Of a stretch of 45,247 nt of DNA, positions 4,110 to 44,702 are shown piece after piece; the stretch's first letter is position 1, and the number at the start of each line of letters is the position of its first letter. The stretch comes from a virus: the IMG/VR virus record IMGVR_UViG_3300045988_046511. One strand, written 5' to 3'. Below the pieces are notes generated by a model. It saw nothing but the letters and a program-made list of their open reading frames with translations, was not told the origin of the DNA and searched no databases. The translations under genes and the position numbers were made by a program.

Positions 4110-5818
4110 ACACCCTGCCCCCGGATGAAGCGGACAGCCCGTTGATCTTAGGAACGGCGTTGCACACAGGCATTGAAGAAAGCCTTGAAGCGGCGGTGAA
4201 AAAATACTGTTCCAGCTATCCGATCATCACGGATGAACACATTAACGAGGTTATCAAGCTGGAACACGTTATCCCGCTGGCAAGGGCAGGAATCCCGCCC
4301 GGTGGTGCGTTCGAAGTCCCCATTATGGACAAGGACTTTATAGGCTACATTGATTACCTTGTGCCAATTAACAAAGTTGATGGTACTGAATATTTTGATC
4401 TCTACGACTTCAAATATTCAAACAATGTTCAAAGTTACAAGAAATCTAATCAGTTGCACCTTTACAAGTATTTCTTTGAGCGGAACAACCCCGGCAAGAA
4501 GATTAGAAACCTGTATCTGTTCTTTGTTCCAAAAGTCCAGATTCGGCAAAAGAAAGGTGAAACGCTTCTTGATTTTAGGGAGCGGCTGAAAGACGAACTT
4601 GCCGGGGTTGATGTTCAAACGGTTCAAGTGGAGTTCGATTATTCAAAAGTGATTGAATTTCTGCTTGCGATAAAGACAGTGAACGAAACAATAGAGTTCA
4701 CAAAAACAGAATCGTACTTGTGCCGATTCTGTGAGTATCAAGATTTTTGCGAGAAAGGATGGGATTTTATGATTCTCCCCGAAAACAAACGCCGCAACAT
4801 TGAACAGGTTCACAAGCGTAAGCTGTGGATTTATGGCGCACCGTTCAGCGGCAAGACCACTTTTGCCAACTCTTTTCCTGATCCGCTCATGCTCAATACG
4901 GACGGTAATGTTGAGAACGTGGACGCGCCTTACATCCCTATCCGCGATAACGTCAAGGTTGAGGGGCGCATGACAAAGCGCACCCTTGCATGGGAAGTGT
5001 TCAAAGATACCATTTCCGAACTGGAAAAGAAGCAGAACACCTTTAAGACCATCGTTGTTGACCTGCTGGAAGATACTTATGAATCTTGCCGGGTTTATAT
5101 GTATCAGCAGATGGGCATTACCCATGAATCTGATGATTCTTTCCGGGCGTGGGATAAGGTGCGCGGCGAGTACCTGAACACCATGAAGCGGCTTATGGTG
5201 CTGGACTATGAAAATATCGTGCTTATTTCCCATGAGGATATGAGCAAGGATATTACCCGCAAGGGCGGTGACAAGATCACGGCTATTAAGCCCGCTGGAC
5301 TGCCTGATAAGGTGGCTAACAAGGTTGCGGGTATGGTTGACGTGGTTGCCCGTATCGTGGCTGATGGCGAAACCCGCACGTTCTCTTTCAAGTCCAATGA
5401 GGTTGTCTTTGGTGGTGGACGCTTGCGTGTCGCCGCAAAGGATCTTCCGCTTGATGTGGATGCGCTCTTTGCTGTGTACGATGAAGCCAACAAGAACGCC
5501 GCAAACGGCGTATCTGAAAACAAGCCGCAAACCGAAAGCACCGAACGAGCCGGGCGTTCCCGCCGTAAGGCAGAGGAAACGCCCGTCACCCCGGCAGAGA
5601 AGCCGCAGGAAGAGCCGGAACAGGTTGAGCCTGTAAACGATACTCCCGCAGAAGAAGCCCGGCAGGAAGCCCCCGCAGAGGGCGAGAACGCACCCACCGA
5701 AAATGCCGATGATGGCAACCCCCCGATGGACGGTGCGGTTGAAGTTCCTGCACCCAATGCACAGCCCGAACAGCCCGCCGAACATCCGCGCCGCAAGCGC
5801 AGAGTGCGGGAAGCCTAA
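4031..5818 (+). CDS. fusion of a Cas4/RecB-like PD-(D/E)XK nuclease (Fe-S Cys motif) with a Sak4/RecA-like P-loop ATPase and an acidic Pro-rich tail
   Basis: N-terminus YSHSRIECFEKCPFKYKMRYL and CRFCEYQDFC (C-x2-C-x5-C, 4721-4750). Walker A GAPFSGKTT at 4835-4861 in KLWIYGAPFSGKTTFANSFPDPLMLNTDGN. Last ~100 aa are low-complexity P/E/A-rich, ending in RRKRRVREA. Confidence 0.8.
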   Translation: MQYSHSRIECFEKCPFKYKMRYLQRLNTLPPDEADSPLILGTALHTGIEESLEAAVKKYCSSYPIITDEHINEVIKLEHVIPLARAGIPPGGAFEVPIMDKDFIGYIDYLVPINKVDGTEYFDLYDFKYSNNVQSYKKSNQLHLYKYFFERNNPGKKIRNLYLFFVPKVQIRQKKGETLLDFRERLKDELAGVDVQTVQVEFDYSKVIEFLLAIKTVNETIEFTKTESYLCRFCEYQDFCEKGWDFMILPENKRRNIEQVHKRKLWIYGAPFSGKTTFANSFPDPLMLNTDGNVENVDAPYIPIRDNVKVEGRMTKRTLAWEVFKDTISELEKKQNTFKTIVVDLLEDTYESCRVYMYQQMGITHESDDSFRAWDKVRGEYLNTMKRLMVLDYENIVLISHEDMSKDITRKGGDKITAIKPAGLPDKVANKVAGMVDVVARIVADGETRTFSFKSNEVVFGGGRLRVAAKDLPLDVDALFAVYDEANKNAANGVSENKPQTESTERAGRSRRKAEETPVTPAEKPQEEPEQVEPVNDTPAEEARQEAPAEGENAPTENADDGNPPMDGAVEVPAPNAQPEQPAEHPRRKRRVREA

Positions 5819-33237: not shown

Positions 33238-34103
33238 TCCGCAAAGTCGATCTTGTGTCTTATCTGCCGCCCATCATGGCAGAGTTTCAAGAATACCGGG
33301 TAACACTGGAAGCGGAAAACCCGGAGTTTGTTCTTGTTTGGAACGCAACGGATCAGGTTCTTCAAAATGAGTTCATAGCAACAGCGGATGAATACGGAAT
33401 CAGCCGCTTTGAACAGATTTTGAACATCTTACCATCTAAGGAAGATACCCTTGAGAGCCGCCGTTCCAGAGTGCAAACGCGGTGGTTCAATACCATTCCT
33501 TACACGCTGAAAGCCCTGTTGGGTAAGCTGATTGCCTTGTGTGGTGAAAACAATTTCACTGTTGTTAAAGACTACGATCATTACAAGATTTCCATTTTCA
33601 CAGACCTTGAACTTTTCGGACAGGCTGAAGAACTGGATTTTACGCTTGAAACCATGATTCCTTGCAACATGATTGTTGTTTCCCGTAACAATATTCCATG
33701 CAATGCGAGCGGCTTTGCTCTGATTTGTGGCGGCGTATGCTTTGTGCAAAATTTCTTTATCACGAACGACTTTCAAGAAAGCCACTCTATCACAGGTGAT
33801 ACGAAAGTGGGCGGCGGTACAGTTGACGCGGCTTTCCAGTTTATCACCAACGACAGCGAGGAAAACCACGTTGTCAACGGTGGAGCGGGCTTTGGTGGCG
33901 CACCGATCAGTACCGAACACCTCTTTATCACGAATGACAGCACCGAATACCCCACAGTTGACGGTGCGGCCATTCATGGCGGTGGTCTGGTAAGTAACGT
34001 ATCGGTGACGATCACAAACGACTTCAACGAAAAGTTCAATGTAAACGGCGATGCTTTGAACGGAGCGGGCGTTGTTTTCACTGAATTTAATAAAATGAAC
34101 TAA
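33234..34103 (+). CDS. XkdU-like (DUF2313-type) tail protein with four C-terminal 28-aa repeats
   Basis: N-terminus YLPPIMAEFQEYRVTLEAENPEF...EYGISRFEQIL. The C-terminus carries the ITND repeats (separate repeat feature). Confidence 0.65.
   Translation: MIRKVDLVSYLPPIMAEFQEYRVTLEAENPEFVLVWNATDQVLQNEFIATADEYGISRFEQILNILPSKEDTLESRRSRVQTRWFNTIPYTLKALLGKLIALCGENNFTVVKDYDHYKISIFTDLELFGQAEELDFTLETMIPCNMIVVSRNNIPCNASGFALICGGVCFVQNFFITNDFQESHSITGDTKVGGGTVDAAFQFITNDSEENHVVNGGAGFGGAPISTEHLFITNDSTEYPTVDGAAIHGGGLVSNVSVTITNDFNEKFNVNGDALNGAGVVFTEFNKMN
33756..34091 (+). repeat. 4 x 84-nt (28-aa) in-frame tandem repeats (F/T)ITND-x9-G-x...
   Basis: FITNDFQESHSITGD..., FITNDSEENHVVNGG..., FITNDSTEYPTVDGA..., TITNDFNEKFNVNGD..., starting at 33756, 33840, 33924 and 34008. 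Confidence 0.8.
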
Positions 34104-34123
34104 AACAGAAAGGAAAAATCACT

Positions 34124-35938
34124 ATGGCAGAATTTTCTAAGCTGGTTATCACAGCGAAAGGACAGGCTTTGATTGCTAAGATGATTGCGGGCGTTGGCAA
34201 CATTGAGTTTACCAAAGTTTCCGCGTCCAGCACCACTTACACCCTGTCGCAGTTGGAAGCCCTCACCGCTCTTTCCAATGTGAAGCAGACAAGCCTTATC
34301 TCCAAAAAGACGATCACGAACAATGTTGCTATCAAGCTGGAAGCGGCTTTCACCAATACCGATCTGACCGCTGGTTACAACATGAAAGCCCTTGGCCTGT
34401 ATGCCAAAGACCCGGATGCGGGCGAAATCCTGTATGCTGTCACCATTGAAACTTCTGGTAACTGCTATATGCCGCCTTATAACGGGATCACCGTTTCCGG
34501 CGCATACATCCAGCTTGTTACCACCGTAGGCAACGCTGACAGTGTGAATCTGAAAGTTGACCCTGCCGCCGTTGCCACGATTGGCGATATTCAGGAACTG
34601 GAAGCAAAGATTGCTGATCTTCAGGCATTCGTAGGCTATACCGATGCCCACATTTACGGCGTTGAGGTGGATTTCAAGAACAAGAAGTTTACCAGACTGG
34701 CGGGCGCGTTTGGCAAAACTGGCGGGTACGCCTTTGATTCGGTGCATTGCTTTGGCGGTCGCCGCCGTTGCAACGTCACGAATGACGGTAAGGTTGTAGC
34801 CTATTACGGCGAGGGTGCTTTCTCCACTACTGGCAAGCTGGCACAGAGCGTCACCATTGAAAGTGGACAGTATGCGGGTACTTATGCCGCTGGCACTCCC
34901 GTACAGGTGATGGTGGAACAGCCTAAGTTCTATTACAAGGTTGTACCGCTGGAAACCGAAATCGTGACAGAGGGCGAGGATCACGGCCACTACACCCGCA
35001 AGATTCGCTATTACATTTGTGATGAGCCGGAAGCTGGGTTCAAGGTGCATCCGGCTTTCGTGGAGAACGGCAACGAGAACGATTATATTTACCTTGCCGC
35101 CTTTGAGGGTTCTCTTTGGGATTCGTCCGCAAGTGCTTACATTCTGGATGATGCACAGGTGGCGGACTTCTCCGCCGATATGCTTTCCAGCATCGCCGCT
35201 GTTAAGCCTATGTCCGGCCTTACCCAAAATCTGACCCGTGCCAATACCCGCAAGCTGGCAAACAATCGCGGCAAGGGCTGGGAACAGGCATACGCCGCAA
35301 CCGTGGCCGCTTCTCAACTGCTCATGCTGATTGAGTACGCTTCTTTCAATATGCAGTCCGCTATTGGTAGCGGCGCGGTTTCTAAAACGGATGATACTTC
35401 GTCTAATATGGCAGAGTATACGGGCGCAACTGCCGAACTGGGCAATGATTCCGGCGCAGTCACCAACGCGAACAGTATTCAGATTGTGTCCTATCGTGGC
35501 GAGGAAAACTTCTGGGGCAATATCTGGGGCTGGGTTGACGGTATGAATATCCAGAATCCCACTCCCTTTGATGCGGCTGGTAAGTTCGGCAGACTGTACG
35601 TTGCAGATCATGGCTTTGCAGACGATACCGGGGACGCACCTTATCAGGATACCGGGATTTGCCCCTGCTACGGTGAGGGCTATATTTCCGCCTTTGGCTA
35701 CTCTGAAAACTTCGATTGGCTGTTTGTTCCCGCCGAACACAACGGTAGCACCGCCGTTCCTGTCGGTGACTACTATTGGAACTATAACGCTGGTTGGCGG
35801 GTCGCTAGATTGGGCGGTGTATGGAGTCATGGTCTGATATCGGGGGCTTTCTATTGGTATCTCGGCGATGCCGCTTCTCATCGCTATCGGAGTATCGGCG
35901 GGCGGTCGGTGTATATCCCGTCCAAAAAGGCCGCGTAA
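34124..35938 (+). CDS. tail fibre / receptor-binding protein; DGR target gene with a C-terminal variable region
   Basis: 604 aa, last structural gene of the tail module. The last ~48 codons contain the VR (35795-35914): ...WRVARLGGVWSHGLISGAFYWYLGDAASHRYRSIGGRSVYIPSKKAA. Confidence 0.85.
   Translation: MAEFSKLVITAKGQALIAKMIAGVGNIEFTKVSASSTTYTLSQLEALTALSNVKQTSLISKKTITNNVAIKLEAAFTNTDLTAGYNMKALGLYAKDPDAGEILYAVTIETSGNCYMPPYNGITVSGAYIQLVTTVGNADSVNLKVDPAAVATIGDIQELEAKIADLQAFVGYTDAHIYGVEVDFKNKKFTRLAGAFGKTGGYAFDSVHCFGGRRRCNVTNDGKVVAYYGEGAFSTTGKLAQSVTIESGQYAGTYAAGTPVQVMVEQPKFYYKVVPLETEIVTEGEDHGHYTRKIRYYICDEPEAGFKVHPAFVENGNENDYIYLAAFEGSLWDSSASAYILDDAQVADFSADMLSSIAAVKPMSGLTQNLTRANTRKLANNRGKGWEQAYAATVAASQLLMLIEYASFNMQSAIGSGAVSKTDDTSSNMAEYTGATAELGNDSGAVTNANSIQIVSYRGEENFWGNIWGWVDGMNIQNPTPFDAAGKFGRLYVADHGFADDTGDAPYQDTGICPCYGEGYISAFGYSENFDWLFVPAEHNGSTAVPVGDYYWNYNAGWRVARLGGVWSHGLISGAFYWYLGDAASHRYRSIGGRSVYIPSKKAA
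35795..35914 (+). repeat. DGR variable repeat (VR)
   Basis: Gap-free 120-bp alignment with 36030-36149. It differs only where the partner has adenine. The conservative core is 35800-35914. Confidence 0.9.
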
Positions 35939-36029
35939 ACAGGCCACTTAACAAGTAAAATTGGGTGGTTCAAGGAGTATTGTTGTTTACAAACGATTGG
36001 CAACAAGCGGCAGATGAAAAGAAACCATG

Positions 36030-36149
36030 AAAAAGGTCACTAAATTAGGCAGTAAATGGAATAATGGTCTGAAATCAGGGACTTTCTATTGGAATCTCAA
36101 CAATGCCACTTCTAATCGCAATCGGAATATCAGCAGGCAGTCAGTAAAT
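36030..36149 (+). repeat. DGR template repeat (TR), non-coding
   Basis: A-rich copy of the VR (45 A in 120 nt by my count) with nine AAY codons when read in the VR frame. It lies in the gap between the fibre gene and the RT gene. Confidence 0.9.
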
Positions 36150-36156
36150 GCACGAT

Positions 36157-36188
36157 ACAGCCGGGGTAAACCAAAACGCCCCGGCTGT
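36157..36188 (+). promoter_or_regulatory. GC-rich stem-loop 8 nt downstream of the TR
   Basis: ACAGCCGGGG (36157-36166) and CCCCGGCTGT (36179-36188) form a perfect 10-bp stem with a 12-nt loop, followed by TTCTAT. Confidence 0.6.
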
Positions 36189-36362
36189 TTCTATATAATC
36201 TCTGTATTCTTGAATACCCTGCCGCATGGCAAAACAGTCAGCCCGCAAGGGAAGTTAAAAATAACTTTTAGCTGTATTGGTAGACTTTGAAAATTAACTT
36301 TCAAACAATTTTCAAAGGTTGAAGATTCGGTTTCAAGTGCATACAAAAGGAACATTCAATAA

Positions 36363-37475
36363 ATGAAGCGTTACGGAAATCTTTATCAAAAGATTTGCTC
36401 AATGGACAATTTGAAAGAAGCGCACAGGAACGCGAGAAAAGGAAAGGGCTGGTACGCTGAAGTAAAAGAGGTTGACACGCACCTTGAAGAATATTTAACA
36501 AAACTTCAGGAAATGCTTGTCAATCACACTTATCACACATCCCCTTATGAAAAGTTCATAAGGAAAGAAAACGGAAAAGAACGGGAAATTTTCAAACTCC
36601 CTTACTTCCCGGATCGTATTTGTCAATGGGCGATTTTGCAAATCATTGAGCCGTACTTGTTGCGGAACATGACAAGTACCACTTATTCAGCGATACCGGG
36701 CAAGGGGATTCACGCCGCCTTGCATGATGTTCAAAAAGCGATGCGGAAAGATGTTCCTAACTGTCAATTCTGTTTCAAGCTGGATGTGCGGCACTTTTAC
36801 CCATCCATAAATCACGCAATCCTAAAGGCAAAGTTCAGAAAGTTGTTCAAAGACGCTGAATTGCTTTGGTTATTGGATGAGATCATAGACAGCATATCCA
36901 CGGCAAGTATCGAGGATATGCGCAACATCTGGTTACTTGATGAAGATATTGACCCGGAAACAGGTATCCCGATTGGAAATTATCTGTCGCAGTATTGCGG
37001 TAATTTTTACTTATCTTCGTTCGATCATTGGCTTAAAGAGAAAATGCACGTCAAACACGCTTTTCGCTATATGGACGATATTGTTATTTTCGGAAACAGT
37101 AAAGAAGCACTTCACAAACTGCAAAAGGAAGTTAAACGATACTTCAAAACGGAACTGCATTTGACTGTAAAAGGCAACTGGCAAATCTTCCCGACTTATG
37201 TTCGTGGGCTGGATTTTGTGGGGTACAGATCATTTTTGAACTTCACCTTACTAAGAAAAAGCAGTTGCAAATCTTTCAAGCAAAAGATGAACAGTATTCG
37301 CAAGAAAACCGAAAACGGGCAGATGATGCGATATTCGGAATGGTGTTCCATCAATTCTTACAAGGGCTGGTTAAAGCACTGTGATAGTTACAGGTTACAA
37401 GCTAAGTATATCGCGCCCGTACAAGCGGACGCTGATAGATACTATCAAGAAGTAATTCAGAGAAAGGCGGCTTAA
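36363..37475 (+). CDS. DGR-type reverse transcriptase
   Basis: 370 aa. Catalytic YMDD at 37068-37079 (FRYMDDIVIFG). IGNYLSQ at 36972-36992 matches the [ILV]GxxxSQ signature of DGR RTs. It lies 213 nt downstream of the TR. Confidence 0.9.
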   Translation: MKRYGNLYQKICSMDNLKEAHRNARKGKGWYAEVKEVDTHLEEYLTKLQEMLVNHTYHTSPYEKFIRKENGKEREIFKLPYFPDRICQWAILQIIEPYLLRNMTSTTYSAIPGKGIHAALHDVQKAMRKDVPNCQFCFKLDVRHFYPSINHAILKAKFRKLFKDAELLWLLDEIIDSISTASIEDMRNIWLLDEDIDPETGIPIGNYLSQYCGNFYLSSFDHWLKEKMHVKHAFRYMDDIVIFGNSKEALHKLQKEVKRYFKTELHLTVKGNWQIFPTYVRGLDFVGYRSFLNFTLLRKSSCKSFKQKMNSIRKKTENGQMMRYSEWCSINSYKGWLKHCDSYRLQAKYIAPVQADADRYYQEVIQRKAA

Positions 37476-37477
37476 AA

Positions 37478-37741
37478 ATGGTTGATTATGGCAAGGTGAG
37501 AAGCACGATCAAGCCCGAAAGCGTTGTGATTGACGATTACAGCGTTTGGGAGAATACCAACATTGAAGCGGTTTCCGAAAACGTAGGCACGGAAACCGAG
37601 TTCAACGGCTTCGAGTACAACATGGTTCAGTATGATAAGAATGAGTACATTCTGAAACAGGCACAGGCCAACGCTGAACTGTCCGATCAGCTTACGGAAA
37701 CACAGCTTGCGCTGTGCGATGTGTACGAGATGATTCAGTAA
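37478..37741 (+). CDS. hypothetical acidic protein (XkdW-position)
   Basis: 87-aa ORF starting 2 nt after the RT stop, with an AAAGGCGG RBS. Confidence 0.5.
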   Translation: MVDYGKVRSTIKPESVVIDDYSVWENTNIEAVSENVGTETEFNGFEYNMVQYDKNEYILKQAQANAELSDQLTETQLALCDVYEMIQ

Positions 37742-37757
37742 GAAAGGGGGATTTATT

Positions 37758-37868
37758 ATGGCTAAAGTGTACGCTGACCTGATCCGCAAAGGTAAAAAGA
37801 CCCTTGACAATGTTCCCGAAAAGCTGAAAGCAGAAGTCAAGGCGATTCTGGACGGTGAAAAGGATTGA
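37758..37868 (+). CDS. 36-aa small protein, paralogue 1 (XkdX/CD1375-like position; below the ORF-track cutoff)
   Basis: GAAAGGGGG RBS. MAKVYADLIRKGKKTLDNVPEKLKAEVKAILDGEKD. Confidence 0.5.
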   Translation: MAKVYADLIRKGKKTLDNVPEKLKAEVKAILDGEKD

Positions 37869-37912: not shown

Positions 37913-38038
37913 ATGGCTATTATCTACGCAACCCTTATCATTAAGGGCAAGAAAACTTTCGCGGACGTTCCCGACAAGCTGAAAGCACAGGTTAAGGACG
38001 TTCTGGAAAGCCTTGAATGCCCCGAACTGGCAGAGTAA
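37913..38038 (+). CDS. 41-aa small protein, paralogue 2
   Basis: AAAGGTGG RBS. MAIIYATLIIKGKKTFADVPDKLKAQVKDVLESLECPELAE. It shares the Y-x-L-I-x-KGKKT-x-x-DVP-x-KLKA-x-VK pattern with 37758-37868. Confidence 0.5.
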   Translation: MAIIYATLIIKGKKTFADVPDKLKAQVKDVLESLECPELAE

Positions 38039-39627: not shown

Positions 39628-40653
39628 CTAATTTGTTATTAGTTCAATGTTCAAGCGCAGTTCTTCAATGTTCTTATGGGTGTATACGCGCTCACCCGTT
39701 CCCTTTGATTTATGCCCCATAAGACGATCTATACAAACCTTGTTCGCCCCGGCAGAATCAAGGCGGGAACGGAACGTGTGGCGGCACTCATGCGGGGTGT
39801 GATTCATATTCAGCGTGTTCATTAGTTCATTCCAAACATCCCGGTATTGGCTTTCGTTCAGCTTCTTTCCGTTGTACTCAAAGAGATACCCGCTTTTCGA
39901 CTGTTCAAAGTGACGTTGAACAATCGTTTGAATTTTTGAATGAATAGGAACAAGGCGATTTTTGCCCGCCGCTGTTTTCACTCCCCCGATCATCGTTCCA
40001 GCGTTGAGGTCAATATTTGCTGTTTTCAGTCCGATCATTTCAGAGATACGGAAACCCGTATACAGGAAGAACAACACAGAATCCGCCCACTCTAAGTTTT
40101 GGTTATCCCAAAGCCGTTGTACCTCATTATCTGTGAAAATCTGCTTTGTGGTTTCGGGGATAGGTGCGGACGTGAGCAGATCGGAACACTGCTTTTGGAT
40201 TATGTCAAGTTCCATTGCAAAGCGGTCAAGATGTCCCCACAGGTTTTTTATTGCGCCTTGGGTTGAGTAGCCTTTGCCGCACCCGTCTATACAATCCTGC
40301 ATTTGGTAAGACTTGATCTGATTGTACTTCAGCCCGCCCAATTTGGCGCAATGGTTATAGGCTGATTTGAGGGATGCCCGGTTAGCTTCGCCCAATTTAC
40401 AAGCCCGTTTATCAAGCCATAGCTTGTAAAGTTCATCCAGTGTAATCTTGTCCGCTTCAATGTCCCACGGGGTAGCGTTGAACTTTGCAAGCAAAATTAG
40501 ACCATCTTCCCGCGTGGCCGTGTAGCCTATGGGTTTCTGCTGTCCAGATTTACCCTCACGCACCACCCACGGTTTCCGCCTGTTCCCGGAAAGCCTAGTA
40601 ACTGATCCGTACCGATTCGGATTTTTCACAGAAATCACCGCCTGTTCTTGCAT
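39628..40653 (-). CDS. int: tyrosine recombinase / integrase
   Basis: C-terminal catalytic region HTPHECRHTFRSRLDSAGAN...LMGHKSKGTGERVYTHK (R, HxxR, Y). Confidence 0.9.
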   Translation of the reverse strand: MQEQAVISVKNPNRYGSVTRLSGNRRKPWVVREGKSGQQKPIGYTATREDGLILLAKFNATPWDIEADKITLDELYKLWLDKRACKLGEANRASLKSAYNHCAKLGGLKYNQIKSYQMQDCIDGCGKGYSTQGAIKNLWGHLDRFAMELDIIQKQCSDLLTSAPIPETTKQIFTDNEVQRLWDNQNLEWADSVLFFLYTGFRISEMIGLKTANIDLNAGTMIGGVKTAAGKNRLVPIHSKIQTIVQRHFEQSKSGYLFEYNGKKLNESQYRDVWNELMNTLNMNHTPHECRHTFRSRLDSAGANKVCIDRLMGHKSKGTGERVYTHKNIEELRLNIELITN

Positions 40654-41299: not shown

Positions 41300-41686
41300 C
41301 TATCCGCACGATTCTTTGACAGAATATTTTTCGTTTTCAAGCAAATCTTCAATCTTGCCGATTGCTTTCCACTGATCGGAATTATCAAGCCTTGAGAACT
41401 TTTTCAGCATTTCACAAGCCGGATCACCAAATACTTCTTTTACATCATCATATATAGCGGACTGTTTGGATGATGTGTTAGAATCATCATTCCAGCACAT
41501 TAGATCGGCGGGAGATACGCCCAAAATTTTTGCGAGTTGTTCAATAGTGGATCGCTTGATGTTCTCCACTCTGCCGCACTCCCACTTATTCACAGCCGCC
41601 CGGTTGACACCCACCATCTTTCCTAATTCTTCTTGGGAAAATCCGTGAGATGTTCTAAGTTGCTTTATGTATTCGCCCATTGTCAT
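41300..41686 (-). CDS. cI-like XRE-family HTH repressor (no peptidase domain)
   Basis: IKQLRTSHGFSQEELGKMVGVNRAAVNKWECGR is a classic XRE HTH. It is 128 aa and divergent from the early operon. Confidence 0.85.
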   Translation of the reverse strand: MTMGEYIKQLRTSHGFSQEELGKMVGVNRAAVNKWECGRVENIKRSTIEQLAKILGVSPADLMCWNDDSNTSSKQSAIYDDVKEVFGDPACEMLKKFSRLDNSDQWKAIGKIEDLLENEKYSVKESCG

Positions 41687-44285: not shown

Positions 44286-44702
44286 ATGTCGTTTGCAAAC
44301 AAGCTGAAAGGCTTGATGGAAGAACTTGATCTTACACAGGCTAAGGTTTCGGACTTAACCGGGATCGGGCGTTCTTCTATCAGTCAGTACGTTTCCGGCA
44401 AAAATGAGCCGTCTAAGGAACGCCGGAAAGAAATTGCCCGTTCGCTGGGAGTACAGGATAACTACTTTGAAGAGTATGACCCGGTTGCAACTGTTCAATA
44501 CAATTCAACCGTCAATCTCCCTGTTGAACTTGTGGCAAAGCTTATGAAGAAATCCCCCCGGTTTGTTCGCCGGGGCTTACAGGACGGGGTTTTCCCGTGG
44601 GGTTACGCCGTGAAGCTGGAACATTGGAGTTACTTTATCTCCTCTGTTAAGTTCACCGAATGCACCGGGATTCAGATTCCCGCTGTTGAGGTATCGGCAT
44701 GA
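44286..44702 (+). CDS. XRE-family HTH protein with a C-terminal extension
   Basis: LKGLMEELDLTQAKVSDLTGIGRSSISQYVSGKNEPS. Confidence 0.75.
   Translation: MSFANKLKGLMEELDLTQAKVSDLTGIGRSSISQYVSGKNEPSKERRKEIARSLGVQDNYFEEYDPVATVQYNSTVNLPVELVAKLMKKSPRFVRRGLQDGVFPWGYAVKLEHWSYFISSVKFTECTGIQIPAVEVSA

Follow-up and report, generated by a model that had tools for sequence, protein, structure and literature searches.

A probable Avd-less diversity-generating retroelement directed at the tail fiber tip of a Faecalibacterium phage

The IMG/VR virus record IMGVR_UViG_3300045988_046511 (45,247 nt; the window hereafter, meaning the whole stretch of DNA that was analyzed) carries a diversity-generating retroelement (DGR). 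The 3′ end of a tail fiber gene contains the variable repeat (VR) and is followed on the same strand by a noncoding template repeat (TR) and by a gene for a reverse transcriptase (RT) (Table 1). With a probability of roughly 0.88, we judge this to be a functional DGR of the target-VR-TR-RT type that operates without the protein Avd and rewrites the fiber tip of a temperate, contractile-tailed Faecalibacterium phage. DGRs are recognized by mismatches between TR and VR that are confined to TR adenines, and by an RT with an [ILV]GxxxSQ motif and an intact YxDD motif.

Repeat pair and reverse transcriptase

The segments 35795–35914 and 36030–36149 can be aligned over 120 nt without a gap, at an offset of 235 nt. 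They differ at 30 positions, each of which is an adenine in the downstream copy (21 A>G, 6 A>T, and 3 A>C); the non-adenine positions are identical throughout (75/75), and 15 template adenines are retained. The original prediction, which had been made from the sequence alone, claimed exactly this adenine-only pattern, and we reproduced it both for the full alignment (30/30 mismatches on A) and for a conservative core of 115 nt (35800–35914 and 36035–36149), in which 25 of 25 mismatches fall on the 40 TR adenines. Mismatches at non-adenine template positions were looked for and none was found. The hypergeometric chance that all mismatches would fall on adenines is 2e-17 for the full span, with its 45 adenines, and 3e-15 for the core. 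The two peptides predicted from the repeats, the nine AAY codons, and the presence of A in 27 of 40 codons were likewise recovered, as were the coordinates of the fiber open reading frame (ORF), of the RT and its two motifs, and the 213 nt that separate the end of the TR from the start of the RT.

The first five positions of the longer alignment (35795–35799; TGGCG versus AAAAA) are invariant in 9/9 genomes and 16/16 fiber proteins compared below. Because these positions never vary, their membership in the repeat is not demonstrable, and the core is therefore the defensible repeat. Counted from 36030, the downstream copy begins 91 nt past the fiber stop codon, and VR and TR are separated by 115 nt. 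A scan of both strands of the whole window found a single VR. An ATG at 36027, the would-be start of an ORF over the TR, is lost in 6/8 relatives.

Variation between genomes is found in the tract from ~35804 to 35897. The last 17 nt of the VR (35898–35914) differ from the TR at five positions (A to G/T) in all genomes alike, and two of these are synonymous third positions. Such fixation is compatible with a candidate segment like the initiation of mutagenic homing elements (IMH/IMH*) that is not copied. This assignment is weakened by a synonymous A in the middle of the VR (35842) that is likewise fixed.

The RT matches PHROG 1423 (E 3e-133), and its best match in the PDB is 8ub7_A (E 1.3e-35), a chain of 328 residues deposited as ‘Reverse transcriptase’ that we take to be the Bordetella phage enzyme bRT from its length and from the bRT–Avd cryo-EM study. 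Group II intron RTs match the window RT at only ~1e-14. The lead of 8ub7 over these enzymes, the IGNYLSQ and YMDD motifs, and the TR/VR pairs that flank homologous genes all support the prediction that the RT is of the DGR type. Profile and PDB scores and the neighborhoods of homologs, by which its placement was judged, gave no indication that it clusters outside the DGR group.

The RT could alternatively be a retron, group II intron, or abortive infection (Abi)/defense-associated RT (DRT) enzyme that happens to lie beside an unrelated duplication. It does have weak NCBIfam matches to a group II intron family (TIGR04416), Drt3a, retron St85, and Drt2, but every one of these is far below its cut-off (117 versus 300, 60 versus 200, and 48 versus 235 bits for the first three). 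Moreover, the combination of A-only mismatches and variation in the population is impossible from plain duplication, and nearly all homologous RTs down to 30% identity adjoin TR/VR pairs. An Rfam scan gave no intron or retron RNA. With no non-A mismatches, and with neither msr/msd nor intron RNA found, this alternative is effectively refuted, and we assign it a negligible likelihood.

Relative to 8ub7, the window RT is 42 aa longer, with an insertion that is larger by ~20 aa (residues 163–196) and a C-terminal extension of ~40 aa (328–370). The insertion aligns with part of the GsI-IIC group II intron RT. One may speculate that the insertion and the extension are correlates of, or compensation for, working without Avd. 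A weak Rfam ‘atpB’ match inside the RT gene was treated as chance.

Table 1. Positions of the DGR components, predicted RNA elements, and lysogeny genes in the window
Feature	Position	Strand	Remarks
Tail-collar fiber gene	34124–35938	+	DGR target, 604 aa
VR	35800–35914	+	Codons 559–597 of the fiber
Helix strand a	35962–35977	+	GGGU-G-GUUCAA-G-GAGU; pairs with a′ (36205–36219)
Possible strand b	36006–36024	+	Pairs with b′ (36187–36204); RNAduplex, less certain
TR	36035–36149	+	Noncoding
GC-rich hairpin	36157–36188	+	10 bp, ACAGCCGGGG / CCCCGGCUGU, 12-nt loop, then UUCUAUAU; read from sequence
Helix strand a′	36205–36219	+	Ends in conserved ACCC
P1 hairpin	36220–36231	+	UGCC-GCAU-GGCA; then conserved A-run AAAACA, to 36236
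Rfam RF03020 (RT-17) match	36236–36346	+	39.3 bits, E 5e-6
P2 outer helix	36272–36277 / 36325–36330	+	CUGUAU / AUUCGG; central U-U
P2 inner parts	36278–36283; ~36285–36317; 36321–36324	+	UGGUAG; stem; GAAG
DGR RT	36363–37475	+	370 aa, Pfam RVT_1
IGNYLSQ	36972–36992		Intact in RT
YMDD	37068–37079		Intact in RT
Integrase	39628–40653	−	
Cro/CI-like regulator	41300–41686	−	
Cro/CI-like regulator	44286–44702	+	

Diversification of the fiber tip

Eight IMG/VR contigs encode an RT that is 99% identical to that of the window; seven of them span the VR, and the eighth (L006; related loci are designated by L numbers) begins downstream of it. A ninth VR-bearing genome is a copy of the phage in a Faecalibacterium metagenome-assembled genome (MAG; L042). 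The fiber-TR-RT region of these contigs is ~97% identical to the window. Among eight genomes (the window and the seven contigs), 30/45 TR-A positions vary, as against 3/75 non-A positions. Close genomes differ pairwise at 11–23 of 115 nt in the VR versus 0–6 of 265 nt in its flanks. The VR is different in each of the nine genomes, and the TR is conserved, being identical in L042, carrying one A>G in L003, and anomalous in L002. The VR of the MAG copy has 29 mismatches to its TR, all at A, and differs from the window VR at 19 positions.

The same pattern is evident in the encoded proteins. The 90%-identity cluster around the fiber has 4,093 distinct members, and the VR peptides are all distinct in 16/16 members compared. 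Positions with at least four residues all lie in aa 562–590, at TR codons with A in position 1 or 2; 11 codons are hypervariable, and each has an A at one of these two positions of the TR codon. None of the A-free TR codons varies (0/13), and no position outside the VR is equally variable among the 16 proteins. We conclude that TR sequence has been copied into the last ~100 nt of the fiber gene with changes only at template adenines, repeatedly and in the recent history of this phage lineage, leaving nearly every sampled genome with its own fiber tip. At the between-genome level, this heterogeneity at template-A positions opposite a constant TR bears out the claim that the fiber tip is hypervariable. 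DGRs acting on phage fibers are a well-known route to tropism switching, and by analogy the diversity of the fiber tip presumably lets the phage follow changes in host receptors or switch tropism.

These differences could instead record the past activity of the lineage if the DGR had recently been inactivated in this particular genome. There is precedent for silence at the level of reads, as the DGRs of Lelie, Lagaffe_CP, and CP11 gave no read-level signal (PMC11792537). However, the RT ORF is intact, with its YMDD and IGNYLSQ motifs, and so are the spacer RNA elements described below. L042 has exactly the same TR and other close relatives nearly the same one, and the VR is unique among the nine genomes. 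We consider recent inactivation improbable and favor a DGR that is still functional.

The anomalous TR of L002 (IMGVR_UViG_3300006299_000057, 5667–5787, equivalent to window 36030–36149) differs at 15 positions, in its 5′ half. Of these changes, 14/15 are at A positions and 13/15 are identical to the VR of the same contig. The anomaly could be due to VR-to-TR gene conversion, to self-homing into the TR, or to an assembly chimera of the two repeats.

The target fiber consists of an N-terminal collar-fiber domain, a coiled coil, and a C-terminal variable domain. Pfam Phage_tail_fib is matched on aa 6–150, the protein matches PHROG 5302 ‘tail protein’ (E 4e-184), and its gene lies directly 3′ of Baseplate_J and Mu Gp48-like genes in a contractile-tail module. 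Searches of the C-terminal 425 aa against Pfam, NCBIfam, and PDB sequences gave no match, even at E 10 or with a profile. Homologs from distant DGR loci share a C-terminal pattern ending FGGxWxxGAxAGAF...IGARL.

An AlphaFold2 model of the full 604 aa, built from a shallow alignment, was unusable (pLDDT 45). A model of aa 257–604 with more diverse alignment rows reached pLDDT 63 and pTM 0.70. Its sole meaningful fold match in the PDB is TaqVP from Thermus aquaticus (5vf4; Foldseek probability 1.0, E 1.3e-3, TM 0.44), itself a DGR-diversified protein, although it shares only 14% sequence identity with the fiber and is a cellular protein rather than a phage fiber. Matches in BFVD comprise tail collar fibers, crAss-like tail fibers, a TvpA-like protein, and a sulfatase-modifying-factor (SUMF)-like protein. 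The model suggests that the C-terminal domain likely adopts a C-type-lectin or FGE-like fold. Structure prediction had been proposed in the original prediction as a way to look for a C-type-lectin fold, and the outcome is mixed: the resemblance to TaqVP and to TvpA-like and SUMF-like proteins speaks for such a fold, but the model is of moderate confidence and the VR itself is poorly modeled.

Cassette architecture and template RNA

Avd is encoded by about 74% of DGRs and is thus not universal. Profile searches gave no Avd-type Pfam match among 28 candidate small ORFs, and the gaps between VR, TR, and RT are too small to accommodate a gene, in the window and in its relatives alike. A cassette of the order target-VR-TR-RT without an accessory gene is architecture A1, which accounted for 29% of the set of Wu et al. 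2018, in which lineage 3 is without avd (PMC5758913). The crAssphage LMMB has the same layout, with a tail-collar-fiber target and an RT assigned to lineage 3 (PMC7290462). The window RT is 39.6% identical to that of LMMB and 47% identical to that of the crAss-like phage cr52_1, and this level of identity to crAss-like RTs (40–47%) would place it in lineage 3 as well. The compact architecture had been singled out as worth characterizing, but it is not new, having been described as A1/lineage 3 (PMC5758913) and in LMMB (PMC7290462). The window DGR adds one more case to a known Avd-less type.

With lineage 3/A1 DGRs, including that of LMMB, the window cassette shares the order of its parts on one strand, the lack of an accessory gene, the tail-collar-fiber target, and a VR ending in a G-x-R-L/S-type motif. 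In contrast, LMMB is a virulent crAss-like podovirus and the window phage a temperate, myovirus-like Faecalibacterium phage, the two RTs are <50% identical, and the subclade of the window has an extra hairpin between TR and spacer motif that is treated below. Among 40 related viral loci (RT 30–99% identical), 37 have an A-specific TR/VR pair, arranged alike and on the same strand, with the VR followed by a short gap, the TR, and then 93–221 nt to the RT. Two of the three loci without such a pair end just upstream of the RT. Six more distant relatives within the same RT clade (L020, L021, L024, L027, L029, and L030; ~4800–5800 in each locus) have two or three VRs per TR, several of these VRs lying in short ORFs (124–191 aa) that precede the TR. 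Such loci are versions of this compact cassette with more than one target.

DGRs are common in Faecalibacterium phages, among them Lagaffe, Mushu, Roos, Pioen, Lelie, and CP11 (PMC5883640, PMC11792537), and their activity was inferred by comparing cognate genomes (PMC11792537). Host genus, temperate lifestyle, structural-protein targets, and evidence from genome comparison are all shared with the window DGR. Unlike the published targets, which match DUF6273, Ig-like, or Mtd, the window fiber has none of these matches. Megablast searches with 3.3 kb and 25 kb of window sequence gave no match among 50,697 GenBank phage records, and no RT at least 60% identical to that of the window was found in GenBank phage records, Faecalibacterium phages included.

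Bordetella phage BPP-1 (mtd-avd-TR-brt) resembles the window in A-specific transfer from TR to VR at the 3′ end of a tail-fiber gene and in having a homologous RT. It differs in possessing avd, which is missing from the window cassette. Furthermore, the window target has no detectable sequence similarity to Mtd, the RT is the longer of the two, the spacer RNA corresponds to Rfam RT-17 rather than RT-10, and no GC hairpin follows the window VR.

All conserved elements of the RT-17 motif are present in the window. Seven relatives (L013, L016, L018, L019, L020, L027, and L029) pass the gathering score for RT-17 or, among the more distant ones, for RT-18 (RF03021) at the same position. In the loci examined here, these two motifs always lie between TR and DGR RT, immediately upstream of the RT start. 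Weinberg et al. 2017 tied only RT-10 to a DGR (that of BPP-1), gave the other RT motifs no assignment, and speculated that these might belong to other DGRs (PMC5737381). A full-text search of the literature found no assignment of RT-17 or RT-18.

Across loci, the spacer has a common layout comprising a conserved CC, the P1 hairpin, an AAAA(C/A)A run, a linker of ~20 nt, and the P2 hairpin. P1 (consensus UGCC-NCNU-GGCA) is kept in all relatives, with compensatory changes in 3/4 pairs. In P2, the 5′ strand is followed by U(G/A)GUA(G/A), GAA precedes the 3′ strand, and a central U-U or G-A mismatch is conserved. The 3′ strand of P2 was not alignable by MAFFT, and the helix was assessed by anchored strand extraction and by comparing the duplex energies of cognate and non-cognate strands. 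Cognate strands pair better, and 0/20000 permutations reached the cognate mean. Between P1 and P2, the window has an inserted hairpin with a GNRA loop (CCC-GCAA-GGG, 36242–36251), on which the Rfam alignment had placed P1 (~36241–36252). Different, longer hairpins are inserted at the same place in L008, L009, and L012.

In 17/17 loci, RNAduplex pairs the ~15 nt directly 5′ of P1 with a segment that lies shortly before the TR. The sequences of this duplex are wholly different between loci, yet its end always falls exactly at P1. The mean energy of cognate pairs is −17.0 kcal/mol versus −9.1 kcal/mol for non-cognate pairs (SD 3.4), and the cognate strand ranks first in 13/17 columns. From this covariation, we infer that a long-range helix (35962–35977/36205–36219) encloses the TR. 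RNAduplex also predicts pairings like b/b′ in L012, L016, and L018. A pairing of the TR sequence GGCAG with the 5′ strand of P1 in the window was dropped, as relatives do not conserve it.

The spacer RNA of BPP-1 forms a duplex with sequence upstream of the TR, followed by a short stem-loop and by adenosines that stay unpaired and dock into G:C pairs (‘cPRT Stop’); further 3′ come a single-stranded ‘thumb ring’ and a long bRT-binding hairpin, and the priming adenosine lies two nt 5′ of the duplex strand (bioRxiv 10.1101/2023.10.23.563531). That study covered only Avd-containing DGRs, and bRT is inactive without Avd (bioRxiv 10.1101/2023.10.23.563531). The window RNA has the same order of elements, namely a TR-enclosing helix, a short hairpin with adenosines, a single-stranded linker, and a long RT-proximal hairpin. 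Because the order is the same, here without Avd, we propose that reverse transcription uses a cis-primer and an RNA scaffold in a manner like that of BPP-1.

The TR lies downstream of the fiber gene, in transcribed territory. In the proposed model, the RNA of TR and spacer would fold so that the long-range helix closes off the TR, as in BPP-1, and beside this helix the hairpin with its A-run (36220–36236), the single-stranded linker, and P2 (36272–36330) would together make up the RT-17 motif. Its functions would be to dock the RT, to bring a cis-primer close to the 3′ end of the TR, and to stop cDNA synthesis at the 5′ end of the TR. The adenine-mutagenized cDNA would then replace the VR with no involvement of Avd.

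The spacer of the window also contains the GC-rich hairpin listed in Table 1. Together with a U-rich tract (to ~36196), it occurs in a subclade formed by the window, L008, L009, L012, and L013, in which compensatory changes preserve the stem. Short-spacer relatives lack the hairpin although they have the same RT-17 RNA, and therefore it is not a core element of the DGR RNA. The hairpin may be an intrinsic terminator of the late (fiber) transcript, in which case only read-through RNA would carry the TR, RT-17, and the RT message, and the efficiency of termination would throttle DGR activity. The 10-bp GC-rich stem, the U-tract that always follows it, and the compensatory changes in the four relatives all fit a terminator. 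Nevertheless, a scan for consensus terminators and promoters gave nothing above shuffles and did not call the hairpin, whose 12-nt loop exceeds the 3–8 nt limit of the scan. The U-tract is also interrupted and overlaps the predicted b/b′ pairing, and DGRs with Avd commonly have a stem-loop of ~9 bp immediately behind the TR, to which Avd binds (bioRxiv 10.1101/2023.10.23.563531). Alternatively, the hairpin might belong to the structure of the DGR RNA and bind a protein, much as the stem-loop just downstream of the BPP-1 TR binds Avd. We give a terminator even odds.

We regard it as an evenly balanced proposition that RT-17 and RT-18 are the spacer (‘Sp’) RNAs of Avd-less lineage-3 DGRs, that together with the TR-looping helix they repeat the BPP-1 order, and that the terminator-like hairpin gates the template RNA in this subclade. 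If this is true, then the scaffolding that bRT receives from Avd would come from the RNA alone, perhaps together with the longer RT, and the BPP-1-like order would run from a cDNA-stop duplex with the conserved C-C at its end through a short hairpin, A-run, and single-stranded linker to an RT-binding hairpin.

Several observations weigh against a functional, Avd-less DGR that works as proposed. The RT-17 match in the window is 1 bit short of the gathering score (39.3 versus 40.4 bits), owing to two insertions and the misplaced P1, and the terminator-like hairpin that separates TR and RT-17 does not sit easily with a contiguous TR-spacer RNA. Inspection by eye across loci gave no convincing conserved primer-template duplex between the spacer and the 3′ end of the TR, which bears on the priming nucleotide and the start of the cDNA. 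No significant BPP-1-type GC hairpin was detected after the VR (z −0.5). Avd is a poorly conserved protein, and its absence was judged from profile searches. The evidence for activity comes from comparison between genomes, which matters for the question of current activity. Lastly, the TaqVP match is modest (TM 0.44, E 1e-3), and the VR segment has pLDDT <50 at aa 327–348 of the model.

A single instance leaves the field unchanged, since tropism switching by DGRs on phage fibers is well known. Both the Avd-less type and the DGRs of Faecalibacterium phages have already been published. However, this is a very abundant gut-phage DGR, with fiber and RT clusters of thousands of sequences and with natural evidence of activity, and its host genus is cultivable. 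It could serve as a good system for working out the mechanism of Avd-independent mutagenic retrohoming. RT-17 and RT-18, until now orphan motifs of Rfam, can be given a defined place in DGR template RNAs and a probable role there, and this link, together with the TR-enclosing helix, makes the question of that mechanism more approachable. The BPP-1 DGR has been reconstituted in E. coli (PMC12875486). Current diversification tools based on BPP-1 need Avd, and engineered targeted diversification could profit from a minimal cassette of ~1.5 kb that comprises TR, spacer, and one RT.

Carrier phage and neighboring genes

The window encodes a small terminase subunit, a tail sheath initiator, tube, baseplate, and fiber proteins, the DGR, lysis genes, an integrase, and regulators, and it reads like a complete temperate phage genome. 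We consider the phage temperate because an integrase, Cro/CI-type regulators, a holin, and an endolysin are all present. Near-identical copies occur in IMG/VR and in the one Faecalibacterium MAG noted above, in which a 72-kb contig encodes an RT 99% identical to that of the window. The carrier is a temperate, contractile-tailed (myovirus-like) Faecalibacterium gut phage.

An antisense ORF of 615 aa (34100–35947, − strand) spans the whole fiber gene; no protein family supports it, and codon composition almost certainly accounts for its presence. An acidic ORF of 87 aa (37478–37741; PHROG 18126, unknown function) begins 3 nt past the RT stop codon. Relatives with RTs down to ~50% identical keep it in synteny with the RT, and XkdX-like genes and a holin accompany it in every case. 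We rejected it as a DGR accessory factor, given its acidic nature and its movement with the XkdX-like/holin late-gene module in related phages, and regard it as a probable late gene of the phage. The stretch from the DGR to the holin contains two tandem paralogous mini-genes of 36 aa (37758–37868) and 41 aa (37913–38038), which are ~60% identical and both match PHROG 1382 and the CD1375-like/XkdX-like family.

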